DNA of 64,000 nt from a virus. Below are positions 47,489-60,579 of this stretch, piece after piece. Position numbers and translations under genes: made by a program. The notes below the pieces were generated by a model. It saw nothing but the letters and a program-made list of their open reading frames with translations. It had not been told where the DNA came from and did not search any database. Within the stretch, counting starts at the first letter, position 1, and every line of letters starts with the position of its first letter. The stretch lies in the IMG/VR virus record IMGVR_UViG_3300045988_141150, one strand, 5' to 3'.

Positions 47489-48544
47489 TTAAGATTTTTT
47501 GGCCTTAGAATTTCGACAACTTTTACAAATACTATAAAAGCCATCTTTACTTGTTTTATTTTTACTAAAATATTTATTGTGAGCTAATTTTATTTTGCCA
47601 CAACGACTACATTTTTTATATTTACCTTTTTCAACATTTAAATAATAATTATCTAAGTATTCATCTTCCGCAGTCGAAGCAATTAATTTTGGAATTTTAT
47701 TACGCCATAAACTTGAAATATATTCAAGGCTGTGCTTAATACCAAATTCCATTTGTATTTTCTCTTGAATGTCAATATTTTGTAAACCATCAATTTTATA
47801 TTCAACGATTCTATCATAAAGAGGATAATTAGCTAAAGCTTTATCACAAAGTTTATCAAAATCCTCCATTAAATACCATAAATCTTTATCATATTCGCCC
47901 CAACTATCTTGCTTTAATCGGGAATAATTACATAAAATCGCAGAACATATCTCAGGTCTTAATAAACTAATTCCATCAGGAATGGGAAAACCATCATCAT
48001 CAAAAATAAATGTTTCATCATCTAATGGAATATAAGACTTTGATCTGGTTAATTTTGTAGGCACTATTGGACGACGATAAGCATTTTTTATAACATACTA
48101 ATCTTTACGCATTTCAATAAGAGCCTTTTTAATAACAAAAGCATCTTTACCTTCTGTTACTTTTAATTTAGCCTCCCAAACATTAATGGCTTCTCTTAAC
48201 TAATTTAAACTTGGTATCTCTTCTAAATCTTTTTTTGTAATTGTAATATGTGGTTGAAATATTGTATTTCTATTATCTGTAATTAAATTATAAATTCCAT
48301 CTTCGCCATTTTCGAGTTGGGAAACAAGACCTTCAAAAGAAGTCTCACGTTTATTAACTGTAGCCATACGATTATCAGTTAATAATTTTTTCTCCTTTTT
48401 TTCTTGTTTCTCCATACAAAGAACCAAATAGTCTGCTAAAATTTCTAAATACTTTTCAGGCGGATCTGGATTATCAGCCAAAATTTGTTCGACTAATTGA
48501 TTTCTTTCTTCTGGAGTTTGTAAAGAATAATCAAGTTTTATCAT
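47489..48544 (-). CDS. first late-operon protein (351 aa if both TAG are read through; 114 aa if TAG terminates), C-terminal zinc ribbon
   Basis: ATG at 48544 with GGAGG RBS; TAG at codon 115 (48200) and a second TAG (48098); same frame continues into ORF 47489..48064; TAA stop. Confidence 0.5.
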
Positions 48545-48597: not shown

Positions 48598-48679
48598 GTT
48601 TCATTTAAAAATTTTTCTTTTTATATTTAAAAATTTTTTTAACAAAACAAATAACTTTTGCCCAATCACGCCCTACGAT

Positions 48680-48708
48680 TTGACATTTTTTATTTTTTAT
48701 TTTATTAT
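48680..48708 (+). promoter_or_regulatory. promoter for the first plus-strand gene
   Basis: TTGACA-17-TATTAT. Confidence 0.4.
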
Positions 48709-48736
48709 TATTATAAGAAAAAGAAAAGGAGTATTT

Positions 48737-49129
48737 ATGGAAATTATTTTTATTGTATTATTGAGTTGTGCGTTAGTAGTATCCCTCCTTTTTTTATGGT
48801 TATACAGAAAAGCCTTTTGGGTATTATACCAAAAAATGGCAAATCAGCAAAAAGAATTAAATAAATGGCCAATCGCGCAATATGAGTGTATGTTATTATT
48901 AAATATATTTTATAATTATGACTTTGAGGGAAGAGCAGTAGATTTTTCGCGATATGAAACGCAAGGACTAATTGTTTATAATTGTTTTCATGAAGCGAAA
49001 AATAGTCCAAAAGGAATTACAAATGATGGAATTGTTTCATCATTTTATAAACAAGCATTTGTATATGAATTAGATGATGGAACATTTGAATGGGAGGATA
49101 TTGAAAATGGGTCGGAACCAGCCTTTTGA
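48737..49129 (+). CDS. small membrane protein (131 aa)
   Basis: ATG with AAAGGAG RBS; N-terminal transmembrane helix; standard code; AT-rich. Confidence 0.55.
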   Translation: MEIIFIVLLSCALVVSLLFLWLYRKAFWVLYQKMANQQKELNKWPIAQYECMLLLNIFYNYDFEGRAVDFSRYETQGLIVYNCFHEAKNSPKGITNDGIVSSFYKQAFVYELDDGTFEWEDIENGSEPAF

Positions 49130-49502
49130 AGTAAGAGGAATAGATGCGGTAATATTTAGATTAGAACAAGAATATTCTAACGCAACAAGAGATAAAGATC
49201 CTTTTGTAAGAGATTGGAAATTATTTAAAACAATACGTATTGAGAAAAAGGATAATGGGTCAAGAACAATTACTTACAGACCTTTATCAGACGCGGAAAA
49301 GGCTCAATTAAGCACCAAAGAAGAACAAGAAGAATATCAGTTAAACAAATACAAATATGTATTAGAGCACTTAATGGAAAAATATGATATAAATACTATT
49401 AATAGATATATTGATAGTTGTAAATATAAAGATAAATTAATTGAATATATTGAGAAAAAATTAAATGCGGAAACCACTCAGCCCTTTGAAGGCAATTGCT
49501 AA
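49107..49502 (+). CDS. hypothetical protein (131 aa)
   Basis: ATG at 49107 with GGAGG RBS; overlaps the end of the upstream gene. Confidence 0.5.
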   Translation: MGRNQPFEVRGIDAVIFRLEQEYSNATRDKDPFVRDWKLFKTIRIEKKDNGSRTITYRPLSDAEKAQLSTKEEQEEYQLNKYKYVLEHLMEKYDINTINRYIDSCKYKDKLIEYIEKKLNAETTQPFEGNC

Positions 49503-49596
49503 AAAGTGTCAGCAGAAAGTCACTTATTCTGTTACTTCTGGATTATACACTCTTATGCAGGGTGAGAAACCTAAAAGAGGTAGAAAAAAGAAATCA

Positions 49597-49707
49597 TGAT
49601 TTGAAATTAAAAATTGATTTGTTGTTTTAACCGTATTCTGAAATTGAAAATTGATTTAGATAAATTTAAATTATTCTTCGTGATTTGAAATTGAAAATTG
49701 ATTTAGA
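49597..49707. repeat. three iteron-like direct repeats (tgatttgaaattgaaaattgattt), spaced about 42-45 bp apart
   Basis: copies at about 49597, 49637 and 49682 in the non-coding stretch where GC content switches. Confidence 0.6.
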
Positions 49708-49739
49708 TTGCGTTTTGACCACGCAAAAGGAAAAACACA

Positions 49740-50079
49740 AATAAAAAAAAATTTTTTCCCGAAATACACCCCCGCCCTATAAGGTTCTAACTTGTTTATT
49801 CTCTGAGAGTATACCAGCCTTACTCTCGCTCTTTTGCGGAACGCAAGACCCCATCCCGCATAAATGCCCCGGTAAACGTTGCTCGGCTCGCTGGCGGTAG
49901 TGGCGAGCCGAGTTTTATAAAAATCAGCAGTTTGCACAAATTTCTCGCCGAAACTTCGTCATAATGCACAAACATCAAAATGCCCGAAACTACGCCATCA
50001 CATTTGGGTAAAATGACTATTGACAATCCAGTAGCCATGTGCTATACTTGTATCATCAAAAAGAAAGAGGTAAATCAAA
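49740..50079 (+). repeat. partial, diverged copy of the early intergenic cassette (TTTTTTCCC box, GC hairpin, GCACAAA box, promoter)
   Basis: hairpin gctcggctcgc..gcgagccgag (49881-49913) followed by gagtttt; ttgcacaaattt box; ttttttccc at 49751. Confidence 0.4.
50020..50048 (+). promoter_or_regulatory. consensus promoter
   Basis: TTGACA-17-TATACT with TG extension (tgtgcTATACT). Confidence 0.55.
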
Positions 50080-50445
50080 ATGAAGAACATTTCCAAAATC
50101 ATCACCATGGCCATTGCTATCATTCTCTCCGTGTCTTTCTTTGGCCCGTTCCACGACCACACAACCGCGGAAGCCTGTGAGGAAGCGCCCCAGTCCTACG
50201 ACCTCTCGGTCATTGAGAATTGGTGCGGTTCAGGCACGGAGCGCGGAAGTATCCGTTTCGTCGGCGCAGAGGTCTATGAGCGCGAGGGCGATACACTGAC
50301 GCTCATTGATGAGCAAGGCAATCTGTGGGACGTGGAAGCACTCAACATTGATGACAACGACTTCTTGCTCTTGTGGATTAACGACAATGACACTGACACT
50401 GTGGAAGATGATACAATCATTAAGGTATGGAGAGAGGCTTACTAA
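50080..50445 (+). CDS. secreted or membrane-anchored protein with an N-terminal signal peptide (121 aa)
   Basis: RBS AAGAGG; hydrophobic N-terminus MKNISKIITMAIAIILSVSFF; acidic. Confidence 0.55.
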   Translation: MKNISKIITMAIAIILSVSFFGPFHDHTTAEACEEAPQSYDLSVIENWCGSGTERGSIRFVGAEVYEREGDTLTLIDEQGNLWDVEALNIDDNDFLLLWINDNDTDTVEDDTIIKVWREAY

Positions 50446-50476
50446 GTCTCTCTCTTTCTTGCGGATCGGCGAAGAT

Positions 50477-50494
50477 TGTTAAAAAATTAACAAG
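50477..50494. promoter_or_regulatory. perfect 18-bp palindrome TTGTTAAAAAATTAACAA (candidate operator or activator site)
   Basis: centre lies 29.5 bp upstream of the -35 box at 50515; identical copy at 50899 with identical spacing. Confidence 0.45.
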
Positions 50495-50514
50495 CAAAGA
50501 AGAGTAAAAAACTC

Positions 50515-50543
50515 TTGACAAATGCGCAATGATGTGCTACAAT
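50515..50543 (+). promoter_or_regulatory. consensus promoter
   Basis: TTGACA-17-TACAAT (tgtgcTACAAT). Confidence 0.55.
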
Positions 50544-50573
50544 GTAGATACAATAAGAAAGGGGAATACTCAG

Positions 50574-50864
50574 ATGACTAATAAGAATTTTTATAATGCT
50601 CTCAAAGCAGAAAAGGAACGGTTGATGAACGAAAGCAAGCAGGCATCCCGCGACTGCCAGATTAAGCATGGTGAGATGTCAAAGGCATGGAACATTGTCA
50701 ATGCCCTTGAAAGCTTGGGTAAGTTTGGCACGCAGGAACTCAGCAACGCGTATGATAACTATGAGGAAGCCAGCTACGCAAGTATGTTAGCAGACAACCA
50801 CTTCGATGACATTGATGAAGCCATTGATAAGATAAATGGATTGATGGGTCTTTACGAAGAATAA
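50574..50864 (+). CDS. small acidic protein (96 aa)
   Basis: ATG with AAAGGGG RBS; TAA stop. Confidence 0.55.
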   Translation: MTNKNFYNALKAEKERLMNESKQASRDCQIKHGEMSKAWNIVNALESLGKFGTQELSNAYDNYEEASYASMLADNHFDDIDEAIDKINGLMGLYEE

Positions 50865-50888
50865 GGGAGCAGTAATGCTCCCTTTCTA
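50865..50888 (+). terminator. rho-independent terminator
   Basis: gggagc-agtaat-gctccc then ttt. Confidence 0.5.
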
Positions 50889-50898
50889 ACGGCGTAGA

Positions 50899-50916
50899 TT
50901 GTTAAAAAATTAACAA
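50899..50916. promoter_or_regulatory. second copy of the palindrome TTGTTAAAAAATTAACAA
   Basis: identical sequence; centre 29.5 bp upstream of the -35 box at 50937. Confidence 0.45.
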
Positions 50917-50936
50917 AGATTTTTCTCAAAAAGGTC

Positions 50937-50970
50937 TTGACAAATCAGTTAGAATGTGGTATTCTATAAT
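50937..50970 (+). promoter_or_regulatory. consensus promoter
   Basis: TTGACA-17-TATTCT overlapping TATAAT. Confidence 0.5.
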
Positions 50971-50994
50971 CACAAAGGGAAAGGGGAAAGAAAA

Positions 50995-51204
50995 ATGATT
51001 TATGGCATTGTTTATTATACTAAGGGCGGTCAGGGCTATCTCTTCCAGCAAGCGTTCGAAGAACAGCGCGCTATGGAGATTGCAGGTAAGATGAACGACT
51101 TACTCGCGACAGGTGCTACGATGTATAATGATAAGTCCTATGGCAAGCTCGACTTGCGGAACGTTGAGTATTTCACAGTTGAACCCAGTAGCGAAATGTA
51201 TTAA
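50995..51204 (+). CDS. small protein (69 aa)
   Basis: RBS AAAGGGGAAAG; TAA stop. Confidence 0.5.
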   Translation: MIYGIVYYTKGGQGYLFQQAFEEQRAMEIAGKMNDLLATGATMYNDKSYGKLDLRNVEYFTVEPSSEMY

Positions 51205-51208
51205 GGGC

Positions 51209-51236
51209 GGGAGCGGGCTCCCCGCTCTTTCTCTTG
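51209..51236 (+). terminator. rho-independent terminator
   Basis: gagcggg-ctcc-ccgctc followed by tttctctt. Confidence 0.5.
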
Positions 51237-51327
51237 CGCCGTGGGGCGCGTGTAGAGCGTCCCAGCCCGAACTTTATCACAGTAAAGCATTAAAGCAAAA
51301 TTTTTTCCATTTTTTGCCAAAAACCAC

Positions 51328-51356
51328 TTGACATTCCTATCCCGAAATGCTATAAT
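51328..51356 (+). promoter_or_regulatory. consensus promoter
   Basis: TTGACA-17-TATAAT (tgcTATAAT). Confidence 0.55.
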
Positions 51357-51389
51357 AGTATCATCAAAAGAAAGAAAGAGGTAAATCAA

Positions 51390-51512
51390 ATGTCTATTCA
51401 CGATGGTCTTGTTCTTCTCGCTATCTATGTTGGTGTTATCGGCGCGGGCGCGCTCATCGAATACGTGGAGCACCGCGTAAAGAGAGCGGTTCATCGCAGA
51501 AAGAGAAGTTGA
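51390..51512 (+). CDS. hydrophobic micro-protein (40 aa, single transmembrane helix with basic tail)
   Basis: RBS AAGAGG; MSIHDGLVLLAIYVGVIGAGALIEYVEHRVKRAVHRRKRS; below the ORF-track size cut-off. Confidence 0.4.
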   Translation: MSIHDGLVLLAIYVGVIGAGALIEYVEHRVKRAVHRRKRS

Positions 51513-51530
51513 AAAACTTCTCTTTTTTTA
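51502..51530 (+). terminator. rho-independent terminator
   Basis: agagaagtt-gaaaa-aacttctct then T7. Confidence 0.5.
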
Positions 51531-51540
51531 TAAAAAACAC

Positions 51541-51574
51541 TTGACAAATCCAACAGCCGGTGCTATACTATAAT
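51541..51574 (+). promoter_or_regulatory. consensus promoter driving a transcript of about 140 nt with no convincing ORF
   Basis: TTGACA-17-TATACT/TATAAT; transcript begins tTGTCAAGAGGGG. Confidence 0.5.
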
Positions 51575-51726
51575 TGTCAAGAGGGGAAGAGATAAGTTAC
51601 TTCCCAAAGGGTGTGTGGCAAGTAGCCATTTCCTTTGATAAAACGCTTAGTTGGAGCGACCAGACAGGGCGCGCACTGTCCGCAAAAGTAGAGAATAAAA
51701 AAATTCCAACTTCTCAAAAAAACCTC

Positions 51727-51755
51727 TTGACAGACCCCTTAGAGTGTGATACAAT
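51727..51755 (+). promoter_or_regulatory. consensus promoter flanked by the 9-bp inverted repeat CTCTTGACA ... TGTCAAGAG
   Basis: cCTCTTGACAgacccc..TACAAT..aTGTCAAGAGg. Confidence 0.5.
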
Positions 51756-51759
51756 AAGG

Positions 51760-51813
51760 ATGTCAAGAGGCAGACAGGAGCGAACAACCTCTCCCCAATG
51801 CGTAGTTGGGTGA
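51760..51813 (+). CDS. leaderless micro-ORF MSRGRQERTTSPQCVVG (17 aa)
   Basis: ATG 5 nt after the -10 box with no RBS; one of a family beginning MS(R/G)G. Confidence 0.25.
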   Translation: MSRGRQERTTSPQCVVG

Positions 51814-51859
51814 AGTAAAACAAAATCTCCCTACCGAACAAAAAAGTTCAAAAAACCTC

Positions 51860-51888
51860 TTGACAAACCCCTTAGAGTGTGATACAAT
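51860..51888 (+). promoter_or_regulatory. consensus promoter driving the tRNA-like RNA
   Basis: cCTCTTGACAaacccc-17-TACAAT. Confidence 0.5.
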
Positions 51889-51900
51889 AAGGGTACAGAT

Positions 51901-52012
51901 GGCGGTGAGGTAGAACGGTTCTACTTCCACAAAGATGGCTGAGATACAAAAGTGTCGCTCACTTGGAAACGTTCGCTATTGGAAAATGTGGGTTCAACTC
52001 CCACCACCGCCT
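51901..52012 (+). ncRNA. tRNA-like small RNA (about 112 nt): 7-bp acceptor stem, D-arm with GG, canonical TTCAACT T-arm, but an aberrant 34-nt anticodon region
   Basis: ggcggtg pairs with caccgcc; D-arm gtag-aacggtt-ctac; T-arm gtggg-ttcaact-cccac; own promoter; no ORF; stem ttcca/tggaa (25-29 with 64-68) encloses 34 nt; no CTA triplet in the loop. Confidence 0.35.
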
Positions 52013-52032
52013 CAAAATTTTTTGAAAAAACA

Positions 52033-52061
52033 CTTGACAAATCCAAAAGTAGATGTTATAA
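52033..52061 (+). promoter_or_regulatory. consensus promoter
   Basis: TTGACA-17-TATAAT (tgtTATAAT). Confidence 0.55.
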
Positions 52062-52093
52062 TGTAGATACAATAAGAAAGGGGATAAAAACCA

Positions 52094-52356
52094 TGACTAC
52101 TTACAACATTCTCACTATTGGCCCTTCTCGTGAACCGAAGCTCGCGGGCAAGTTCAACGTTGCGGATACTGAAAACTTCCTTGACCGGTTAGAGGAAACG
52201 CTCTACATTCTCTTTGAATTAGAGCCGAAATCCCGCGAATGGAAACGCGAATTTCTCAAACATCTTTTTGCGGAATTCACTTATCACTTTTGCGAAGATT
52301 CCCGCGTTGAAAAGCAAGGCAACAATATTATCGTTTATGAAGAAAATGAGGGCTGA
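52094..52356 (+). CDS. hypothetical protein (87 aa)
   Basis: RBS AAAGGGG; TGA stop. Confidence 0.55.
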
Positions 52357-52375
52357 AAAAGCCCTCATTTTTTTT
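52348..52375 (+). terminator. rho-independent terminator
   Basis: gagggct-gaaaaa-gccctc then T8. Confidence 0.55.
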
Positions 52376-52396
52376 CAAACTTTTTTCAAAAAACTA

Positions 52397-52428
52397 TTGA
52401 CATTTACTGCCCTAAGTGGTATTATAAT
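52397..52428 (+). promoter_or_regulatory. consensus promoter
   Basis: TTGACA-17-TATTAT/TATAAT. Confidence 0.55.
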
Positions 52429-52472
52429 ATCAGAAAGGGAAAGGAAAATCCCGAACACCAGAAAGGTTAGCT

Positions 52473-52664
52473 ATGGATACTTTCGAAATGTATTACGAGA
52501 AATTCATGAAGATGCGCAAGGCTGACATTATTCGCGAGGGTCAGACTTGGGATATTTGGGCAAACTGCCAAAGCACTGCCGATAGCCTGATGAAGTGGAC
52601 AAAGCCCGTTCTTGCGAGAGTTCTTGCTGGACGCCTGGACCGTTTGGAAAAGCGGGGCTACTAA
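52473..52664 (+). CDS. hypothetical protein (63 aa)
   Basis: RBS AAAGG; TAA stop. Confidence 0.5.
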   Translation: MDTFEMYYEKFMKMRKADIIREGQTWDIWANCQSTADSLMKWTKPVLARVLAGRLDRLEKRGY

Positions 52665-52680
52665 GCCCCGCTTCTTTCTT
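52650..52680 (+). terminator. rho-independent terminator
   Basis: aagcggggc-tacta-gccccgctt then ctttctt. Confidence 0.5.
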
Positions 52681-52691
52681 GAAAAAAGTTC

Positions 52692-52720
52692 TTGACAAAT
52701 CTCGAATCTATGGTATAATA
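52692..52720 (+). promoter_or_regulatory. consensus promoter
   Basis: TTGACA-17-(tgg)TATAAT. Confidence 0.55.
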
Positions 52721-52749
52721 AGAGTATAAAAGGAAAGGGGATAAACAAA

Positions 52750-52989
52750 ATGACTTTGGACATGATTAAAAATGTAATTGGCACGGTAAAAGGCGCGCTG
52801 ATGTTCTATGAGGGGAATGGCGTCGAAGTGATAAACGAAAACACTTGCGGTCGCTATCTCAAAGACCGCAAAGGTCGCATGACTTTGAATGGTGATGTGT
52901 TAGACGCAAGCGAAGAGTGGGTGCTGGGATTGCCGGTCAGCGATTTGAAAGCCAGAGATAACGTTCTCATTATTTATGTTGATGGCTAA
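52750..52989 (+). CDS. hypothetical protein (79 aa)
   Basis: RBS AAAGGGG; TAA stop. Confidence 0.5.
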   Translation: MTLDMIKNVIGTVKGALMFYEGNGVEVINENTCGRYLKDRKGRMTLNGDVLDASEEWVLGLPVSDLKARDNVLIIYVDG

Positions 52990-53004
52990 AATTAAATTTT
53001 TTGA

Positions 53005-53250
53005 ATTAAAAATCTCCCCAAAAATGGGGAGATTTTTTTGTACATTTTATCTATTGACAATCCCAAAACTTCATGGTATAATCGGCCGGCGCGCGAACGG
53101 ACCTGGCGCGCCGAGTTTTTGTCAATAGGCGGGTTGCACAAATTTTTGGGGCAAATCTTTGTGCATAATGTCAATAGACAGAATCCCGAATTGGTGCTAT
53201 ACTATAATCACAGTAAGGGAAGGAAAACCTACCAAACCGGAAAGGGATAA
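53005..53250 (+). repeat. early intergenic cassette, short type: terminator, promoter P1, GC hairpin plus T-tract, GCACAAA box, promoter P2
   Basis: terminator 53009-53040; P1 TTGACA 53045 with TATAAT 53068; hairpin cggcgcgc..gcgcgccg 53078-53104 then agttttt; P2 TAGACA-17-TATACT 53166-53194. Confidence 0.6.
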
Positions 53251-53254
53251 CAAC

Positions 53255-53563
53255 ATGATTAACATTCGTTCTATTCTCAAACTCGCTGAAAATGACGGTC
53301 TGACCCTCAAACATGGCAAGAAGGTCAATTACAAGTCCGGCTGGCAGGTCGCCACTAATGGCGTTGAATGTAAGACCGCCCGCGAAGCCATTAACGCGGT
53401 CAAGGAATATGGCGGCAACTGCGGCGTGTGGTTTGCGAACGGCATTTATTATGTTGACAAGTCCAAGAGGGTGCAGACCAAGAAGCAGGCGCTTGAAATC
53501 GGCAAGGCGTGCAACCAAATCAGTGTATATGGCTGGGCGCGCGGCAATCTGGCTTACTGCTAA
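53255..53563 (+). CDS. hypothetical protein (102 aa)
   Basis: true start at the internal ATG 53255 with AAAGGGA RBS; TAA stop. Confidence 0.5.
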   Translation: MINIRSILKLAENDGLTLKHGKKVNYKSGWQVATNGVECKTAREAINAVKEYGGNCGVWFANGIYYVDKSKRVQTKKQALEIGKACNQISVYGWARGNLAYC

Positions 53564-53573
53564 AAAATTAAAT

Positions 53574-53609
53574 AGAGGGCTTGACAAAACAAGCCCTCTA
53601 TGCTATAAT
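53574..53609 (+). promoter_or_regulatory. promoter whose -35 box sits in the loop of a 7-bp hairpin (agagggc-TTGACAAAACAA-gccctct)
   Basis: TTGACA 53581-86, 17-nt spacer, TATAAT 53604-09. Confidence 0.5.
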
Positions 53610-53641
53610 AAAGGCACAATAAAGGAAAGGGAGAAAACAAC

Positions 53642-53911
53642 ATGGAAATTAAATATGCTCACGAAATGGCGGCTATCGCTAAGGACATCCGCACCGCCAA
53701 GCGCGCCAAAGATACTGCTACGGCCCGCGCCTATCTTGAAGAAAACCTGATGAAAGATATTGAAGACCACGCGGAAAAAGGCGAGAATTATCTGTCTCGC
53801 TGTCTCGTTGCCATTGAAGATGAAGCCGTGAAAGAAGCCTTAAAAAATCTTTTGCGGAATTATGGCTATACAACTTCTTATTCAAACGGCGTTCTCACCG
53901 TAAGGTGGTAA
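53642..53911 (+). CDS. hypothetical protein (89 aa)
   Basis: RBS AAAGGGAG; TAA stop. Confidence 0.55.
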   Translation: MEIKYAHEMAAIAKDIRTAKRAKDTATARAYLEENLMKDIEDHAEKGENYLSRCLVAIEDEAVKEALKNLLRNYGYTTSYSNGVLTVRW

Positions 53912-53916
53912 GGTAA

Positions 53917-53946
53917 AAGAGGGAAAATTTTTCCCTCTTTTTCTAA
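53917..53946 (+). terminator. rho-independent terminator
   Basis: agagggaaaa-ttttt-ccctcttt then ttc. Confidence 0.5.
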
Positions 53947-53954
53947 AAAACTTC

Positions 53955-53983
53955 TTGACAAATCCAAAAGCAGATGTTATAAT
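53955..53983 (+). promoter_or_regulatory. consensus promoter
   Basis: TTGACA-17-TATAAT. Confidence 0.55.
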
Positions 53984-54015
53984 AAAAGCACAATAAAGGA
54001 AAGGGGAATAAATTA

Positions 54016-54087
54016 ATGGAATGTCCTTATTGCGATGGAAAGTGCGGAACACATGCTCAATGCGTTAAATGCGGAAAAGGGAAATAA
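54016..54087 (+). CDS. zinc-ribbon micro-protein MECPYCDGKCGTHAQCVKCGKGK (23 aa)
   Basis: RBS AAGGAAAGGGG; four Cys arranged as CxxC..CxxC; overlaps the RBS of the next gene. Confidence 0.35.
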   Translation: MECPYCDGKCGTHAQCVKCGKGK

Positions 54088-54089
54088 AA

Positions 54090-54446
54090 ATGGGAACGGA
54101 ATTCTTAATTATTGGCGGAATTTTTAGCGCAGTCCTTGCGCTGTTTGTCTGCCTTGTCTGTTGGTGCCGCATGGAAAAGTCTCACCCAATAGTCAGATTG
54201 TTAGTTGGTATCCTTATTTCGTGCGCCATCGGTTATGGCATGACGGGCGCGTTAGTCGCAGAACATAATGCCGATAGAAAAGCATGGAACAACGGCTATT
54301 GCTCCATTTGCGGAAATGAAATGGAATTTGTAAATGCTTCTCATGGTCGGCATGGAACAGTTTATTACTATTGGTATTGCGATGAGTGCGGTCATACGTT
54401 AGAGTTAACTTCTAACTTTGCAAAGGGGGAAACAGATAATGAATGA
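54090..54446 (+). CDS. membrane protein with two transmembrane helices and a C-terminal zinc ribbon (118 aa)
   Basis: internal ATG 54090 with GGGAAATAAAA RBS; CSICGN..CDECGH. Confidence 0.5.
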   Translation: MGTEFLIIGGIFSAVLALFVCLVCWCRMEKSHPIVRLLVGILISCAIGYGMTGALVAEHNADRKAWNNGYCSICGNEMEFVNASHGRHGTVYYYWYCDECGHTLELTSNFAKGETDNE

Positions 54447-54645
54447 AAAAACTATCCCACAGGCTTTGAGAGAACAGGCAGACGCCATTGAAAAGTTAGC
54501 TCAAAGAATTGCGAAAGAAAGCAAGGAATTTCCAGACGAGGAAGACCGCAGAGACGGCGGAGAACTTGCGGACGCTTTATTTGCGATTCAATCAAAGCTC
54601 CGCTATGAGTACTCTTGGATTGCGGAAACCATGTGGGACGTGTAA
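54439..54645 (+). CDS. small acidic protein (68 aa)
   Basis: ATG 54439 overlaps the upstream gene by 8 nt (operon); TAA stop. Confidence 0.5.
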   Translation: MNEKTIPQALREQADAIEKLAQRIAKESKEFPDEEDRRDGGELADALFAIQSKLRYEYSWIAETMWDV

Positions 54646-54646
54646 T

Positions 54647-54688
54647 TTTCAGGCGAGATTTAATTATCTCGCCTGAAAATTTTTTTCA
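54647..54688 (+). terminator. rho-independent terminator
   Basis: ttttcaggcgagat..atctcgcctgaaaa then T7. Confidence 0.55.
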
Positions 54689-54729
54689 AAAAACTATTGA
54701 CAAACTCACCCCGTTGTGGTATTATAATC

Positions 54730-54798
54730 ATGTCAAGAGGAAGTGGTAAGCCTCTTGAAGTAGTGAACAAATTTCTCATACTATGGTTTGCGCGGTAG
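54730..54798 (+). CDS. leaderless micro-ORF MSRGSGKPLEVVNKFLILWFAR (22 aa) that ends in TAG
   Basis: ATG immediately after the -10 box; one of only two early-region reading frames terminated by TAG. Confidence 0.25.
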   Translation: MSRGSGKPLEVVNKFLILWFAR

Positions 54799-54830
54799 CC
54801 GATAATTACCGCGCCCTTTCTATTTCATTT

Positions 54831-54848
54831 TTGTTAAAATTTTAACAA
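54831..54848. promoter_or_regulatory. third palindrome TTGTTAAAATTTTAACAA (variant of the 50477 and 50899 site)
   Basis: perfect 18-bp palindrome; same half-site TTGTTAAAA. Confidence 0.35.
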
Positions 54849-54893
54849 TGATTGTTCGGCCGGGCGCGCACGGACCACGCGCCCGGAATTTCA

Positions 54894-54922
54894 ATTATAT
54901 CACAGGGCCAGCAATTTGTCAA
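54894..54922 (-). promoter_or_regulatory. reverse-strand consensus promoter firing leftward into the GC hairpin
   Basis: plus strand reads ATTATA-17-TGTCAA, which is TTGACA-17-TATAAT on the minus strand; the only minus-strand signals in a plus-strand region. Confidence 0.5.
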
Positions 54923-55048
54923 GCAAAAAGTCGCGAAAATTTGCATAAATTATTTTTCCCAATTTTGTGCGATCCGTCAATAGACAAATCTCTAAGAGTG
55001 TGTTATATTATAATTGTTCCAAGGGAACAGAAAGATGAGGTAAATAAA

Positions 55049-55255
55049 ATGACTAACTACAACATTCACTCTTTTATCAAGACCCAGCTTCTCCATGCCG
55101 AGCAGATGCCCAGCGATGCCGAACTTTTCAAGCATAACGCCTATGGCGCAGTCTCGTGGGAGTTATATCGCACGAATGACCATGCCCTTGAAGAACAGTG
55201 GGCAAATGTATATGCTCCCAAGTTCGACGCCATCATCAGAAATTATCATTTCTGA
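55049..55255 (+). CDS. hypothetical protein (68 aa)
   Basis: internal ATG 55049 with GAGG RBS; TGA stop. Confidence 0.5.
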   Translation: MTNYNIHSFIKTQLLHAEQMPSDAELFKHNAYGAVSWELYRTNDHALEEQWANVYAPKFDAIIRNYHF

Positions 55256-55261
55256 TAAAAA

Positions 55262-55296
55262 GGGCTTGACAAAAGCCCTTTCGCATGATATAATAC
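55262..55296 (+). promoter_or_regulatory. promoter with its -35 box in a hairpin loop (aagggc-TTGACAAA-gccctt)
   Basis: TTGACA 55268-73, 17-nt spacer, TATAAT 55291-96. Confidence 0.5.
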
Positions 55297-55324
55297 ATAT
55301 ACAATCAAGAAAGAGGTAAAACAA

Positions 55325-55663
55325 ATGCTTATCAAAATGTCAAAACACGCCACGCAAGACCGCATTGACCGCCTGCTCTTCATCTACGATAATGTAGGAA
55401 TCGGCGAACCGTATATCGACAGTGTTGAGGACGATGTTCTCTACACTATCACTACAACAGGTATTCTTCTTGTTCGTAGTGCTAAGGACGGAACACTCAT
55501 TACAGCCTATATCGCGGATATTGATAAAATCACCGCAATATGGAGAAATAAGCACGGCGAGCGCCCTATGCCTGATAACCTTTACAAGCGGGTTCTCGCA
55601 AACGCGTTCTTTGATAGAATGTGGAATAAGCAAGAAAAGGAGAAAAAGAAAAATGTTCGGTAA
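55325..55663 (+). CDS. hypothetical protein (112 aa)
   Basis: RBS AAGAGG; TAA stop; first gene of a 3-gene operon. Confidence 0.55.
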   Translation: MLIKMSKHATQDRIDRLLFIYDNVGIGEPYIDSVEDDVLYTITTTGILLVRSAKDGTLITAYIADIDKITAIWRNKHGERPMPDNLYKRVLANAFFDRMWNKQEKEKKKNVR

Positions 55664-56006
55664 GAAAAAGAAGCCTTTCAATCCATATGAAAAACGCGCG
55701 GACGATGCGCTTTATGAAGTATGGGAAACGCGCGACCGCCTTTATGAAAAGACAAGGCAAGTCATTACGCGCGTAGGGGTGATTAACCTTTACCCCAATG
55801 GCGCTGACCGCGAGAAAGCCGTCTCTGACGCCGAAGAAGCGAAGCACGCTTTGCTTGTAGCTATTGGAGCATACGACACCGCGCGCATGGAATACAATGA
55901 TTATGTTGAAAAAAACGCGGAAAAGTTTGACAACCATAAAGAAAAATGGACTACCACGAGCCATGAAATTATCGAATGGGCTTACAAATACTATTATAAA
56001 GGGTGA
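55653..56006 (+). CDS. hypothetical protein (117 aa)
   Basis: internal ATG 55653 with AAGGAG RBS; overlaps the upstream gene by 11 nt. Confidence 0.5.
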   Translation: MFGKKKKPFNPYEKRADDALYEVWETRDRLYEKTRQVITRVGVINLYPNGADREKAVSDAEEAKHALLVAIGAYDTARMEYNDYVEKNAEKFDNHKEKWTTTSHEIIEWAYKYYYKG

Positions 56007-56011
56007 ATAAA

Positions 56012-56245
56012 ATGAAGATTACTATTAAGAATAATAAACTCGCCCCCTTTGGAGAAATTGCCAAGGGCGTAGTTTTCAAAGACCCGACCGCCGAAGATTA
56101 TTACATCAAAATCGCCGCAGAGGTCGATGAAAATACCGGTGATGATGAATGGAATTGTCTCCATTTGGACAATTACGCTCTCGACTGTTTCGGCCTAAAA
56201 GATATGGTTCTCCCCATCTACGATGCGGAACTGATTATTCCCTGA
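56012..56245 (+). CDS. hypothetical protein (77 aa)
   Basis: ATG 56012 with AAAGGG RBS; the ORF-track start at 56003 is GTG. Confidence 0.45.
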   Translation: MKITIKNNKLAPFGEIAKGVVFKDPTAEDYYIKIAAEVDENTGDDEWNCLHLDNYALDCFGLKDMVLPIYDAELIIP

Positions 56246-56358
56246 TAAAACCGGACTTTGTCCGCGTTTCTCTCCCCCTTTCCTATGGCTTTGGCGGTTG
56301 TACCCCAAAAAACAACCGCCACCCTTTCCAAAAAATAAATTGAATGGAGATAAAAAAG

Positions 56359-56535
56359 ATGAAGAATGAGAAACTTAGTGAGGTTGTTAAAACTGTGTGC
56401 TTGATGGCACGATACGGCATTCAGAAGGGATATCCCTCGGGCGGGACAGAAGCAAATGACATGATTGAACGTGTCGCGCTTCTTGAAAACAAGCTCGTTC
56501 CCATTCTCGTCGACCTTGAAGCCGTAGAAAACTAA
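56359..56535 (+). CDS. hypothetical protein (58 aa)
   Basis: ATG 56359 with GGAG RBS; the alternative ATG at 56344 lacks an RBS. Confidence 0.4.
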   Translation: MKNEKLSEVVKTVCLMARYGIQKGYPSGGTEANDMIERVALLENKLVPILVDLEAVEN

Positions 56536-56757
56536 ATGAAAAATCACCCAATTTGGGTGATTTTTTTTGTTTACTTTCACTATTGACAAAGTTCCTTGAA
56601 TGTGATAAAATCGTCGGCGCGCGGACGATTGTGGCGCGCCGAGTTTTTTGTCAAGAGGTAAGTTCAACAAATTTTCGCACGAATTTTTGTGTAAAATGCC
56701 AATAGACAAAAATCCTATAATGTGGTAAGATGTATACAACAAATAGAGGGGGCTAAA
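56536..56757 (+). repeat. early intergenic cassette, short type (terminator, P1, GC hairpin plus T-tract, GCACGAA box, P2)
   Basis: terminator 56540-68; P1 TTGACA 56583 with TAAAAT 56606; hairpin cggcgcgc..gcgcgccg 56615-41 then agtttttt; P2 TAGACA-17-TAAGAT 56703-31; same stem sequence as the copy at 53078. Confidence 0.6.
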
Positions 56758-57105
56758 ATGATGGTTGCATGGTATTGGTTAATTCTCGCGTTTTGCGTGG
56801 GTATTGCGTTCGCTACAATCACTGATGAGTGGTATGATTGGGAAAACACTTTAACTGACATTCTTGCATGGATTGCTCTGATTATCGGCTTCGTTCCTTT
56901 GACTTTCTATTGCATATTTCTCAAACTGACGGTTTTCCACCCCACTACGCGAGAGAAGTTTGAGGAAGTCAAAAAGGTTAGCGAAGAAACTTGTAAAATC
57001 TATCGAGTATGCGGAAACGTGTATTTCTGGATTGACCTTAAAGCAACAAAAATCTATAACAAGGTATTCTTTATTCGAGTAAAGGAAACTGAAAACAATG
57101 GGTGA
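56758..57105 (+). CDS. membrane protein (115 aa, two transmembrane helices)
   Basis: internal ATG 56758 with AGAGGGGG RBS. Confidence 0.5.
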   Translation: MMVAWYWLILAFCVGIAFATITDEWYDWENTLTDILAWIALIIGFVPLTFYCIFLKLTVFHPTTREKFEEVKKVSEETCKIYRVCGNVYFWIDLKATKIYNKVFFIRVKETENNG

Positions 57106-57256
57106 AAGAGTTAATGTTTTATGTTTAATTGAGTGGTTGCGCGCTTGGACGGAAACCTTTAATGACTGCGCTTGTTGTCCTTTGTCCAACGAGTGCGACC
57201 GCCGGAGCATCAGTTATGAATGTGCTGATGACCTATTAGAAAAATTAAAGGAGTAA
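57098..57256 (+). CDS. Cys-rich micro-protein (52 aa)
   Basis: ATG overlaps the end of the upstream gene; 6 Cys; weak RBS. Confidence 0.25.
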   Translation: MGERVNVLCLIEWLRAWTETFNDCACCPLSNECDRRSISYECADDLLEKLKE

Positions 57257-57271
57257 ATTAAAAACTCTCTA

Positions 57272-57306
57272 TTGACATTTTTGTTATAATATGATATTAT
57301 TATAAT
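57272..57306 (+). promoter_or_regulatory. consensus promoter
   Basis: TTGACA-17-TATTAT/TATAAT. Confidence 0.5.
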
Positions 57307-57329
57307 AGAAAAAGGAAAGGGTGATAATA

Positions 57330-57803
57330 ATGAATACAATTCTTCTGTTCGCGCTTTGCACGGCGGTGAATGTTATTCTGTCAACTATCAAAAGCATTTT
57401 GACTGTTAAGGGCGGAAAACTTAGCGCGTCTTTCATCAACGCTCTCACTTATGGTTTTTATTCCTATGTGATTGTGCTGACTTCTGCGGACGGTATGCCT
57501 ATTTGGTTAAAAATGGCTATTACTGCCATTTGTAATTTCGTAGGCGTTTACCTTGTCAAGTGGATTGAAGAAAAAGCGCGTAAAGATAAATTATGGAAAG
57601 TCGAGCTTACCGTACCGACAAGATACACTAATACCATTGACTTTGACTTACATGATGTTCCACATTCTTACATTGAATTGAGCGATAAACATACGCTTTT
57701 CAATTTTTACTGCGCGACCCAAAAGGAAAGCGCAAAAGTCAAGGCTATCGCTAATCAGTATGAAGCAAAATATTTTGTTGCGGAAAGCAAAAATCTTGAA
57801 TAA
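57330..57803 (+). CDS. membrane protein (157 aa)
   Basis: ATG 57330 with AAAGGGTG RBS; multiple transmembrane helices; TAA stop. Confidence 0.5.
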   Translation: MNTILLFALCTAVNVILSTIKSILTVKGGKLSASFINALTYGFYSYVIVLTSADGMPIWLKMAITAICNFVGVYLVKWIEEKARKDKLWKVELTVPTRYTNTIDFDLHDVPHSYIELSDKHTLFNFYCATQKESAKVKAIANQYEAKYFVAESKNLE

Positions 57804-57837
57804 AGGGCTTGACAAAAGCCTTTTATTCTGCTATACT
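57802..57837 (+). promoter_or_regulatory. promoter with its -35 box in a hairpin loop (aaagggc-TTGACAAA-gcctttt)
   Basis: TTGACA 57809-14, 17-nt spacer, TATACT 57832-37. Confidence 0.5.
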
Positions 57838-57867
57838 TAACGTATCAAGTGAAAGGGGAAAATTAAA

Positions 57868-58320
57868 ATGAAAGCTACTGGTATCGTTCGCAGAATTGAT
57901 GACCTTGGACGTGTGGTCATTCCGAAAGAGATTCGCCGGACTTTGAAGATCCGCGAGGGCGACCCGCTTGAAATCTTCCTTGGAGAGGACAACTGCGTTT
58001 GCTTCAAGAGGTATTCAGTGCTTGGTTCGTTGACCGAAGAGGCTCTGCGAACCGCTATTACAATGGCGTCAAATTCCGGTCTACGCCCTATCGCAATTTA
58101 TGATACTACTGTAAAACTGCGGGGCATGGAAAACTTTTCGGCCTATGTCCCGACCCAGTGGGAATTTGAAAGAAAGCCATTTGTTTTCAATAATACCTAT
58201 GGCGTTTATCCGGTTTGCGCGGACGGCGACCTTGTGGGTTATGCGGTTTGCGACCAGCAAGACATGGGGTGTGAAATGGACATGATTGTTCGCTACCTCA
58301 GCATTGTGTCTGAACGTTAA
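57868..58320 (+). CDS. abrB-like: AbrB/SpoVT-family swapped-hairpin transcriptional regulator (150 aa)
   Basis: N-terminus MKATGIVRRIDDLGRVVIPKEIRRTLKIREGDPLEIF closely matches the AbrB/SpoVT N-domain (MKSTGIVRKVDELGRVVIPIELRRTLGI...); about 100-aa C-terminal extension. Confidence 0.7.
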   Translation: MKATGIVRRIDDLGRVVIPKEIRRTLKIREGDPLEIFLGEDNCVCFKRYSVLGSLTEEALRTAITMASNSGLRPIAIYDTTVKLRGMENFSAYVPTQWEFERKPFVFNNTYGVYPVCADGDLVGYAVCDQQDMGCEMDMIVRYLSIVSER

Positions 58321-58327
58321 AAAAATA

Positions 58328-58367
58328 GCACAAGGGGCTTGACAAAACAAGTCCCTTGTGCTATAAT
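58328..58367 (+). promoter_or_regulatory. promoter with its -35 box in the loop of a 9-bp hairpin (gcacaaggg..cccttgtgc)
   Basis: TTGACA 58339-44, 17-nt spacer, TATAAT 58362-67. Confidence 0.5.
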
Positions 58368-58396
58368 AAAACCATCAAAGGAAAGGGGCAAATAAA

Positions 58397-58573
58397 ATGG
58401 AAATTGAAAAGAAATTCCAGGTTGATTATAGCGGTAAAAATCCTTGGGACCAGTATTACGACAATCGGGTTAATTTTGATTCCGAAGAAAAAGCCGATGC
58501 TTTTATCCAAAAGTTGATGGAAGATGAAAATATCTATCAAATTTTCAAAACCATTACTGCCAGATACAGATAA
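58397..58573 (+). CDS. hypothetical protein (58 aa)
   Basis: RBS AAAGGGG; TAA stop; below the ORF-track size cut-off. Confidence 0.45.
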   Translation: MEIEKKFQVDYSGKNPWDQYYDNRVNFDSEEKADAFIQKLMEDENIYQIFKTITARYR

Positions 58574-58811
58574 AATTTGAGGTGAAAATTCACCTCATTT
58601 TTTTGGTTATTTTGCCTATTGACAAAAATCCAATAGTGTGATAAAATGGCCGGCCGTTTACGTATGCCACGGCCGGAACTTCAATTATACCAGAAGCCAG
58701 CAAATTTGTCAATCGGCAAAATGCACAAAAATCTAATTAGTTTTTTTCCCAAAATGTGCTTGACAAAATCCAGCAGATGCGCTATAATGTATTTAGAAAG
58801 AGGTGAAAAAC
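58574..58811 (+). repeat. early intergenic cassette, long type: terminator, P1, GC hairpin, reverse promoter, GCACAAA box, TTTTTTCCC box, P2
   Basis: terminator 58576-58606; P1 TTGACA 58619 with TAAAAT 58642; hairpin ccggccg..cggccgg 58650-76; reverse promoter 58684-58712; P2 58760-58788. Confidence 0.6.
58684..58712 (-). promoter_or_regulatory. reverse-strand perfect consensus promoter converging on P1 across the hairpin
   Basis: plus strand ATTATA-17-TGTCAA; the predicted minus transcript is hairpin plus UUUUAU (about 40 nt). Confidence 0.5.
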
Positions 58812-58970
58812 ATGGATAATTTCAAGAAAGCCACTGTAAAAGATTATACTGCTTGGGATTTGAATTGTAGAAACATTTGCCCTCACGATAAATCTTCTAA
58901 TAAACTGGAAAAGCGTATCAAGCGCAAGGCTCGCAGAAGTCTTAAACAAAATTTGAAAAAAAAGTATTGA
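58812..58970 (+). CDS. basic micro-protein (52 aa)
   Basis: RBS AAGAGGTG; its stop codon overlaps the -35 box of the next promoter. Confidence 0.4.
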   Translation: MDNFKKATVKDYTAWDLNCRNICPHDKSSNKLEKRIKRKARRSLKQNLKKKY

Positions 58971-58995
58971 CAAAATACAGCAAATGCGCTATAAT
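58967..58995 (+). promoter_or_regulatory. consensus promoter
   Basis: TTGACA-17-TATAAT (gcgcTATAAT). Confidence 0.55.
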
Positions 58996-59027
58996 GTAAG
59001 TACAGTAAAGGAAAGGGGTAAACACCA

Positions 59028-59528: not shown

Positions 59529-59553
59529 CAAAGCCCTACTCCAATGGTATAAT
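59520..59553 (+). promoter_or_regulatory. promoter with its -35 box in a hairpin loop (agggc-TTGACAA-agccct)
   Basis: TTGACA 59525-30, 17-nt spacer, TATAAT 59548-53. Confidence 0.5.
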
Positions 59554-59582
59554 AAATACATCAAATGAAAGGGGAAAATAAA

Positions 59583-59792
59583 ATGTTTGTTCTTTTAATT
59601 CTGCTGTCTCTCACAATTTCGTTCCTGCTTATCTCTGGTTTAGTTTGGCTTCTCTGTTGGCTTCTCCCTGCCATTGGTATCACCGCAATCGGCACTTTCA
59701 CCATCGTGTTCTCGTGGAAGCTGGCACTCGCAATTTGGATTATTCTCCTGCTTCTGAGCACTATCTTCCCGAGCGGTAGTAATAGGGGGTGA
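59583..59792 (+). CDS. small membrane protein (69 aa, two transmembrane helices)
   Basis: ATG 59583 with AAAGGGG RBS. Confidence 0.5.
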   Translation: MFVLLILLSLTISFLLISGLVWLLCWLLPAIGITAIGTFTIVFSWKLALAIWIILLLLSTIFPSGSNRG

Positions 59793-59795
59793 AAA

Positions 59796-59939: not shown

Positions 59940-59957
59940 AAGAAAGGGGAAACAAAA

Positions 59958-60571: not shown

Positions 60572-60579
60572 AAAACCCC

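Follow-up and report, generated by a model that had tools for sequence, protein, structure and literature searches.

Introduction

It is well known that phages encode transfer RNAs (tRNAs). Some, though few, also encode orphan tRNA-like RNAs, and for decades it has not been clear what these do. Species 1 and 2 of phage T4 (rnaC and rnaD) are small stable RNAs of the T4 tRNA cluster, with acceptor-like ends, maturation by tRNA enzymes and a function that is unknown; YrlA, a bacterial and phage RNA resembling Y RNA, joins a tRNA-like, L-shaped domain to a stem that binds Ro/Rsr, and occurs in phages. We describe here an RNA of 112 nt encoded at positions 51901-52012 on the plus strand of a 64,000-nt stretch of DNA (the window) from the IMG/VR virus record IMGVR_UViG_3300045988_141150. 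It has the intact core of a tRNA, with the decoding end swapped for an invariant module that is held at a fixed distance from that core. Phage tRNA-like small RNAs are already known; what is new is the family to which this RNA belongs, and the module on its anticodon side.

Results

A phage-encoded family of tRNA-like RNAs

The element has a G+C content of 50% in a genome of 33% G+C, and the Rfam tRNA model RF00005 matches exactly 51901-52012 with 37.0 bits (cut-off 29; E = 3.7e-4 over the whole 64 kb), with about 50 nt inserted at the position of the anticodon loop. This is the sole Rfam match within the window. ARAGORN called no tRNA and no transfer-messenger RNA (tmRNA) anywhere in the same 64 kb, so that of the searches proposed in a preliminary description of this locus the Infernal/Rfam scan was positive (tRNA, 37.0 bits) and ARAGORN was negative. 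In Rfam 15 at E values up to 10, only models of the tRNA clan match the locus, none of them matching the inserted module, and there is no intron, ribozyme, riboswitch or protein-binding family at this position; the family of tRNA-like RNAs described below is absent from Rfam 15. Folded as a single sequence, the element has a minimum free energy of -39 kcal/mol (z = -3.6), and none of 200 shuffled sequences folds equally well.

A complete cloverleaf core is present and is backed by covariation. The 5' strand of the acceptor stem, GGCGGUG (51901-51907), pairs with CACCGCC in 52005-52011, all seven pairs being formed throughout the family and six of the seven having changed on both sides. It is followed by A8 and G9, and not by U8, ahead of the D arm; A8 is found in all members but L024 (relatives are denoted by such locus numbers) and G9 is invariant. 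The D arm, GUAG-AACGGUU-CUAC (51910-51924), has a stem of 51910-51913 with 51921-51924, of which three of four pairs covary, and a loop, AACGGUU, that includes G18 and G19. On the 3' side, the alignments define a very short variable region, AAU (51985-51987), which leads into the T arm GUGGG-UUCAACU-CCCAC (51988-52004), with a canonical UUCRANY loop and three of five pairs covarying. Pairing and the 3' flanks place a pyrimidine discriminator, U, at the end of the 3' acceptor strand (52005-52012), and the discriminator is a pyrimidine (U or C) across the family. CCA is encoded directly after it in 8 of 19 variants, far above chance, with the window copy reading UCAA instead. The 7-bp acceptor stem, both arms, the discriminator and a length of about 112 nt had all been named in the preliminary description and are borne out, the discriminator U being followed by CAA and the coordinates being those of the Rfam match.

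Pattern scans identified the same RNA in many IMG/VR contigs of 86-158 kb, in human-gut metagenome contigs, and in two contigs binned into metagenome-assembled genomes, one of which is a 163,874-bp 'Mollicutes' contig whose proteins are 90-98% identical to those of the window. At least 14 distinct sequence variants were recovered from these three sources, and their acceptor stems diverge widely (GGCGGUG, GCAAGUA, GGUGAUA, GGGUGUG, CACGGUG and GGUAAUA). In a third group, made up of unrelated phages with genomes of about 150 kb, the RNA lies inside arrays of a dozen tRNAs, between tRNA-Thr and tRNA-Phe; it is thus common to unrelated gut phage groups, which argues for a host partner and not a phage partner. 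Blastn and megablast searches of 50,697 phage records returned no match to the window RNA, and exact patterns of its 5' half and of its insert had zero matches in IMG/VR. No description of this RNA was found in the literature on phage tRNA-like decoys, phage tRNA introns and suppressor-tRNA introns, and a literature search by sequence words returned unrelated primers only.

Two alignments were used, A1 with 14 sequences aligned by MAFFT, and A3 with 17 sequences fitted to a covariance model, R1. The model gives 132 bits to the window copy, 94-134 bits to the 17 aligned members and 79 bits to a 5'-truncated copy (L068), as against at most 29 bits for ordinary tRNAs. In A3, 97.2% of the cells at paired positions are standard pairs, compared with 78% in shuffled alignments and 43-49% when partners are slid by one to three columns; 23 of the 34 pairs have changed on both sides, and none of 500 shuffles reaches the observed values. 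RNAalifold returned the same structure from the plain MAFFT alignment, with compensatory double changes at 20 of 32 pairs, and because this independent result agrees, the covariation is not an artefact of model fitting. Only mechanical open reading frames (ORFs) overlap the element, and its relatives show compensatory changes and insertions or deletions that are not multiples of three, consistent with the earlier statement that no ORF is present. The element is therefore a genuine tRNA-like gene and belongs, with its relatives, to a family of phage-encoded tRNA-like non-coding RNAs that had not been described before, and the view that it is a tRNA-like RNA with an aberrant anticodon region is sustained both by the RF00005 match and by covariation in at least 14 homologues.

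An invariant module in place of the anticodon loop

Where a tRNA has its anticodon loop, the window copy has 52 nt inserted between the strands of a short stem, stem A, and an equivalent insert is present in all 17 aligned members. Stem A, with UUCC (51925-51928) paired to GGAA (51981-51984), is a 4-bp remnant of the anticodon stem, and follows the D stem without an intervening nucleotide 26. It is always 4 bp long, with CUCC/GGAG and UCUC/GAGA among the relatives, and its four pairs are 100% formed and all covary. The preliminary description had drawn a 5-bp stem (ttcca/tggaa) around 34 nt, and here it needs to be corrected: UUCC pairs with the distal GGAA, both sides changing together, and the first UGGAA (51964-51968) is part of an invariant unpaired strand and not a stem partner.

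Distal to stem A is a one-sided bulge of 5 nt, ACAAA (51929-51933), with nothing unpaired on the opposite strand. This hinge has the form N-NNN-A in the family and is 4-6 nt long (13 nt in one member), and its sequence is variable except for the last base, which is always A. Helix P1 follows, in which GAUGGC (51934-51939) pairs with GCUAUU (51975-51980); it has 6 bp in every member, is 99.3% paired, and covaries heavily at four positions. One or two U residues, a single one in the window, separate P1 from an invariant GAG.

The remainder of the arm is an internal loop of approximately 20 invariant nucleotides, UGAGAUAC on one strand and GGAAACGUUCGC on the other, surrounding a dispensable hairpin, P2. 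The 5' strand, UGAGAUAC (51940-51947), is the same in all 14 sequences of A1, and in A3 its counted positions do not vary among the 17 sequences; it contains AGAUA (51942-51946), which fits AGNNA. The 3' strand, U-GGAAACGUUCGC (51964-51976), has GGAAACGUUCGC invariant in A1 and the preceding U in 12 of the 14 sequences, with C in L043 and L062 (CGGAA); UGGAA at 51964-51968 fits UGNNA. Within the loop, AUAC(RA), which reads AUAC-AA in the window, lies opposite GGAAACG, and neither side ever varies. An alternative pairing would join the invariant GAG (51941-51943) to the invariant UUC (51972-51974). P2 itself, AAGUG-UCGCU-CACUU (51950-51964), is variable and covaries, GUG/CAC being replaced by GGG/CCC and other pairs; its length in the family ranges from 0 to about 6 bp, and a 7-nt linker takes its place in L029. 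The distance between tRNA core and module is fixed, at 4 bp, the hinge and 6 bp (+3), and an RNA with so rigidly dimensioned an arm in place of the anticodon loop cannot decode.

One further arrangement of the module was seen. At L037 7296-7385 (-), in IMGVR_UViG_3300035698_007203, both of its strands occur twice, nested and inverted, in a 90-nt spacer between two tRNAs, in the order UGAGAUAC - X - GGAAACGUUC-ACC-GUAA-GGU-UGAGAUAC - Y - AAAACGUUCGC. The outer copy and the inverted inner copy have one short helix in common, and a GUAA loop caps the inner helix. This is the sole case found in IMG/VR of the module outside any tRNA body, and because the double copy sits there, the module is a self-contained, portable unit. 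A permuted search, with the 3' strand placed before the 5' strand, returned 120+ matches that were abundant coding sequences of other phages, L037 being the only real one. Targets complementary to the invariant strands were not found beyond chance in the window.

A possible T-loop module

The module that docks on the tRNA elbow in the L1 stalk, RNase P and T-box stem I is built of two T-loops arranged head to tail, and the pattern AGNNA...UGNNA alone has been regarded as a strong indication of its presence (Lehmann et al. 2013). The invariant strands of the phage RNA read U-G-AGAUA-C-R-A before P2 and UGGAA-A-C-G-U-U-C after it, so that both parts of this signature are present in that order, AGAUA being invariant and the second part being UGGAA in 12 of 14 sequences of A1 and CGGAA in the other two. 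In RNase P class A the Rfam consensus is 'AC AGAAA acAgA - P12 - G UGAAA a', with 'AC AGAGA GCAAA' in Escherichia coli, and the corresponding sequence in the window is 'UG AGAUA CAAAA - P2 - UGGAA A'. Going by this pattern, the invariant loop may be an interdigitated T-loop module arranged as is the J11/12-P12-J12/13 region of RNase P, an assignment that we consider plausible though more apt to fail than to hold.

Several points weigh against it or against the mechanism proposed below. The first base of UGGAA is C in L043 and L062. AGAUA overlaps the Watson-Crick pairing of GAG with UUC, which is thermodynamically favoured and is seemingly needed for the inner hairpin of L037. The predicted platform would be U:G, unlike the mostly purine:purine platforms of RNase P and the L1 stalk (Lehmann et al. 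2013, Table 1), and known T-loop modules have nothing that corresponds to the invariant ACGUUC. The chance of finding AG..A on the 5' strand together with UG..A on the 3' strand is about 1.2%, so that the match is suggestive and not decisive. Among the neighbouring genes no conserved partner was found, those for HAD-like and DEDDh-exonuclease-like proteins being loosely linked. The tertiary fold of the module and its binding partner are read from a sequence pattern, and maturation by RNase P with addition of CCA is likewise presumed.

With these points in mind, our tentative view, to which we give somewhat less than an even chance, is that the RNA is a tRNA mimic that presents a docking module to the tRNA elbow or to a tRNA-binding factor, and is not a suppressor. 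It is transcribed early from its own consensus sigma70 promoter, or in other phages co-transcribed within tRNA arrays, and since the complete tRNA core is kept and CCA is often encoded, it would presumably mature as a tRNA does, through RNase P, 3' trimming and the CCA-adding enzyme. Charging by those aminoacyl-tRNA synthetases that ignore the anticodon would not be expected, as the RNA lacks G3:U70, A73, G-1 and a long variable arm. The product would be an abundant early tRNA mimic holding a docking platform at a fixed distance from its tRNA body. The module could then clamp a tRNA elbow, be it on a second tRNA or, if the arm bends back at the hinge, within the same molecule; the approximately 9-10 stacked pairs of the arm together with the module are about as long as the D stem plus stem A. 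Alternatively, the RNA might occupy a host factor that recognises tRNAs, in the course of host takeover or counter-defence.

Alternative explanations

A serious competitor, though in our judgement an unlikely one, holds that the tRNA body is only a scaffold for processing and stability, and that the internal loop specifically binds a protein or small ligand and has no relation to T-loops or elbows; the RNA might then be an aptamer, or might act as a sponge that takes up a host enzyme which binds RNA, or a defence protein. This would account well for some 20 invariant nucleotides in an asymmetric internal loop all of whose flanking helices covary freely, and it is compatible with the GAG/UUC pairing. 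The module of L037 lies outside a tRNA body, in two facing copies as might suit a dimeric binder, and the occurrence of the module in unrelated phage groups again points to a host partner. A mere scaffold would not, however, explain the strict 4-bp and 6-bp spacing, the frequently encoded CCA or the near-invariant A8 and G9; moreover, no riboswitch or protein-binding family of Rfam matches at E values up to 10, and no co-conserved protein gene was found.

Turning back to the tRNA mimic with a docking module, a more specific form of it can be envisaged, in which the RNA would be a free-standing, trans-acting device for binding tRNA, analogous to T-box stem I or the specificity domain of RNase P but built on a tRNA scaffold; we regard this as improbable. 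A target tRNA would be held by its elbow, on which the double T-loop platform would stack, and the N-NNN-A hinge, a Specifier-like codon followed by a conserved purine, would select the target, a scheme for which our expectation is equally low. The hinge triplet is CAA-A, a Gln codon, in the phage of the window, where TAG is recoded to Gln (see below), and UAA, UGA, CAU, AUA, AAU, AGA or UUA in others. If such a device exists, the RNA could capture, protect or re-route particular tRNAs during infection.

The genetic code of this phage raises the question of a suppressor. Late genes on the minus strand at 1890-48547 are readable only if TAG is a sense codon, upon which the longest stop-free frame increases from 555 to 2760 codons, with up to 80 in-frame TAGs in one late ORF of 2759 codons; PHROGs identifies terminase, portal, virion protein and a sigma-like factor among them. 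The small early genes on the plus strand (48600-64000) contain no in-frame TAG. At aligned TAG positions a standard-code relative has Q, E, K, N or D, the residue being Q where the context is best conserved. The preliminary description was correct in calling this a TAG-recoding phage and also in reporting no CTA triplet at a loop position, since the only CUA (51976-51978) lies in the covarying helix P1, where it changes along with its partner and is absent from relatives. Its implied connection to an expected TAG suppressor does not hold: there is no conserved CUA, none of the 17 aligned members has a 7-nt anticodon loop with U33, and the RNA is found in a standard-code relative. In that relative, L001 (a 114.7-kb contig and the nearest syntenic one), the same promoter and RNA lie beside genes for the sigma-like factor, terminase and portal that are intact standard-code ORFs of 439, 595 and 505 codons, and at the loci covered, the array-type phages give no indication of recoding. 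Because L001 and the tRNA-array phages carry it, the RNA is not tied to recoding. An amber suppressor tRNA was accordingly rejected, there being no CUA in a loop and its presence not tracking TAG recoding; the tRNA-like RNA is not the TAG suppressor.

One could still suppose that the RNA is a tRNA precursor interrupted by a short intron, about 45-52 nt long and of a new kind, whose splicing yields a functional tRNA, possibly a TAG (Gln) suppressor, and so times the change of genetic code. TAG recoding is confined to late genes while an early promoter drives the RNA, the insert is exactly at the usual site of tRNA introns, and no canonical tRNA, tRNA-CUA included, was detected in the 64-kb window or in its flanks (8.5 kb on the right and 4.4 kb on the left, approximately 13 kb in all), in a genome of 150-190 kb. 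We nevertheless consider an intron very improbable. No bulge-helix-bulge (3-nt bulge, 4 bp, 3-nt bulge) is present at the insert, because the sole bulge at its base is one-sided, with 5 nt on the 5' strand and none opposite, and 52 nt is far too small to hold a group I core. Excision from P1 to P1' leaves a loop of 5 nt, and in no register does excision bring back a loop of 7 nt that has U33 and a conserved triplet; the would-be triplet varies in close relatives (CAA, UAA, CAU, AUA, AAU, UGA and others), and the sole CUA is buried in P1. The insert is also more conserved than the exons, the standard-code L001 carries the RNA as well, and the proteins scanned include neither an RNA ligase nor a splicing endonuclease.

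A resemblance of the module to a clustered regularly interspaced short palindromic repeat (CRISPR) can also be drawn. The sequence (G/C)U(U)GAGAUAC-hairpin-GGAAAC mimics a repeat that starts with GUU, ends with GAAAC and has an internal hairpin, and the RNA might thus be a tRNA-stabilised RNA anti-CRISPR carrying a solitary repeat unit. Several members read GUUGAGAUAC...GGAAAC over 32-33 nt, a size that, like these terminal motifs, is typical of many CRISPR repeats, and early, strong expression would fit an anti-defence role. Recognition of the Cas6 type usually needs the hairpin, though, and here its sequence varies freely and is absent in L029; the invariance also runs past the would-be repeat into GUUCGC and the fixed helix lengths. 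No matching array was seen in one viral scan with a loose pattern, in which the multi-match loci were collagen-like coding repeats. We give this explanation very little credence.

That the element is a decaying pseudo-tRNA or a functionless, tmRNA-like relic, as its rejection by ARAGORN and a weak match to the tmRNA clan (16.8 bits) might suggest, is scarcely credible and is effectively refuted by the covariation seen both with MAFFT and RNAalifold and in A3, in addition to which there are some 20 invariant loop nucleotides across unrelated phage groups, a consensus promoter of its own, a tmRNA score far under the 47-bit cut-off, and no tag ORF, pseudoknots or G3:U70.

Known motifs were also compared with the insert. 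None of the hammerhead, hairpin ribozyme, twister and pistol motifs fits, nor does the 'CUGAGA' of thiamine pyrophosphate and hydroxymethylpyrimidine pyrophosphate (TPP/HMP-PP) riboswitches, and Rfam has no match to them here. The K-turn, the sarcin-ricin loop, the S8 site of 16S h21, the ATP aptamer and the selenocysteine insertion sequence (SECIS) do not fit either.

Promoters and neighbouring genes

The promoter of the tRNA-like gene (51860-51888, plus strand) is sigma70-like, with TTGACA and TACAAT separated by 17 nt and a TG extension, matching at 11 of 12 positions; it ends 12 nt upstream of the RNA, and the identical sequence precedes the homologues in L001, L025 and L075. Transcription presumably starts near 51895; if so, the 5' leader that RNase P would have to remove is about 6 nt long. 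A nearly identical tandem copy (TTGACA-17-TACAAT with TG, also 11 of 12) is located upstream at 51727-51755 on the same strand; 51720-51760 and 51855-51895 are a tandem duplication of the RNA's promoter, the copies being separated by a leader of about 95 nt, and read-through from the upstream copy would cover the tRNA-like RNA too. Read by eye, the intervening segment (51762-51855, plus strand) is a short leader or small transcript with a GAGG...CCUC hairpin, CCCCAAU and then a CCCAA-UGCGUAG-UUGGG hairpin, and it has no Rfam match. The close relative L025 has one promoter copy only, without this segment (L025 1990-2050), and in L029 a similar GAGG...CCUC-CCCCGAU leader hairpin is joined directly to the RNA.

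A third promoter (52034-52062, plus strand) matches at 12 of 12 positions, is 22 nt 3' of the RNA and serves the next gene, 52093-52356; the consensus promoter reported at 51860 and a second one directly after the element are thus both recovered. The surrounding region, 50000-54000, contains 22 promoter-like sigma70 sites with the TG extension where 6.6 are expected, six of them with 12 of 12 matches, and is the early plus-strand region of the phage. We note that nearly every small early gene within it has a perfect or near-perfect sigma70 promoter.

Pfam, NCBIfam and PDB searches of the neighbouring proteins were nearly empty, and the proteins named by PHROGs were limited to late structural ones, a sigma factor and one resembling an antitoxin. 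An early protein (57868-58320, plus strand) resembles MazE/AbrB-type antitoxins (Pfam E = 5e-10); the sigma-factor-like protein of the late operon (47489-48544, minus strand; PHROG 5767) has a C-terminal zinc-ribbon or HNH-like tail. An ORF of the HAD superfamily at 59028-59528 (plus strand) has a weak match to the PNKP phosphatase domain (Pfam E = 2e-4, below cut-off). Such HAD/PNKP-phosphatase-like ORFs lie directly downstream of the RNA in three relatives (L001 26-283, L024 3697-4131 and L075 1606-2037), and 7 kb away from it in the window.

A 258-aa protein (61367-62143, plus strand) has the invariant DTE, NxxFD and HxxxxD motifs of DEDDh exonucleases; it has no Pfam match, and PHROGs gives a weak match to an exonuclease subunit. 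More than 5,000 homologues reach E <= 1e-5, and identity is about 60-93% for the best 120 listed. Its gene adjoins the RNA in L029 and L049, while in seven other loci with that exonuclease the RNA is absent within 6 kb, so that this linkage is at best loose. In other phages a non-coding gap of about 300 nt precedes the gene for the 258-aa protein.

The tRNA arrays of the relatives contain other unusual RNAs. The orphan skipping-rope RNA (Rfam RF02924, 77.9 bits) is present at L014 12016-12095 (-) and L017 4669-4748 (+), a few hundred bases from the tRNA-like RNA in the same arrays. Class II tRNAs with a long, Ser-type variable arm have the anticodon GCU in L013 7712-7802 (-) and GCC (Gly) in the close relative L004 2339-2426 (+). 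Some array tRNAs are oddly long, a Thr tRNA of 85 nt having a 14-nt variable arm and a 'Phe' tRNA of 92 nt having an unclear anticodon arm. A second and different tRNA-like gene occurs in the arrays at L013 9412-9510 (-); it is 99 nt long with normal acceptor, D and T arms, and a 7-bp stem around a 31-nt insert replaces its anticodon loop. This gene suggests that tRNA bodies with foreign modules are a recurring design in these phages.

Discussion

The family described here is a well-covarying RNA common to unrelated gut phage lineages and provided with an early promoter of top predicted strength. As ARAGORN misses the RNA and Rfam calls it a tRNA, there is a risk that in recoded phages it will be mis-annotated as a suppressor or as an intron-containing tRNA. 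The T-loop hypothesis for its module is plausible from the sequence, and the function is unproven. If the module does dock on the elbow, it would be this motif's fourth natural context, the first viral one and the first among trans-acting small RNAs, and it would offer phages a new route to manipulate the host tRNA pool or defences that target tRNA.

In its likeness to canonical tRNA (RF00005), the RNA has the acceptor stem, a D arm with G18 and G19, the UUCRANY T loop, the discriminator, a frequent CCA, a location in tRNA arrays, and a score above the gathering cut-off. It departs from tRNA in that the window RNA has no 7-nt anticodon loop, U33 or anticodon, but a structured arm of 52 nt; the stem is of 4 bp where a decoding tRNA has a 5-bp anticodon stem with a 7-nt loop, A8 takes the place of U8, nucleotide 26 is missing, the variable region has 3 nt, and ARAGORN makes no call. 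With tmRNA it has in common a tRNA-like domain of acceptor and T arm and a long helix replacing the anticodon arm. In contrast, the window RNA has 112 nt as against about 350 nt, an intact D stem, no tag frame and no pseudoknots, and position 3:70 is C-G and not G3:U70; the tmRNA model gives 16.8 bits against a cut-off of 47, and ARAGORN finds no tmRNA.

From T4 species 1 and 2 the RNA appears to differ in architecture, and it has no sequence similarity to them, the window RNA having no blastn match in the 50,697 phage records. YrlA is alike in that a tRNA-like domain is fused to a second conserved helical module, yet the arrangement is reversed: YrlA ends at its Ro-binding stem, with the acceptor-like arm closed, whereas in the phage RNA the acceptor stem is made of the two ends, and it is the anticodon side that the module closes. 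Rfam gives no Y RNA or YrlA match, and no TROVE/Rsr gene was present among the proteins scanned. T-box stem I is marked by a K-turn, a Specifier loop and a spacing of Specifier and platform that equals the span from anticodon to elbow; the phage RNA does not belong there, as there is no Rfam T-box match, and only about 9 bp extend from the hinge bulge to the module.

The predicted T-loop module, in which two interdigitated T-loops would build two stacked base triples and a flat platform suited to the G19:C56 elbow of a tRNA, would differ from those of RNase P, the T-box and the L1 stalk in being embedded in a tRNA-like molecule and not in a ribozyme, riboswitch or rRNA. The phage RNA, for which the module is predicted from sequence, also has the extra ACGUUC, a possible GAG/UUC helix, a predicted U:G platform, and a C at the first position of a putative T-loop in two members. 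It resembles the T-loop module of RNase P, in which the signature is likewise carried, in the same order, on two strands that flank a variable hairpin (P12 there, and here the dispensable P2), and two unpaired nucleotides precede the first putative T-loop of the phage RNA as well.

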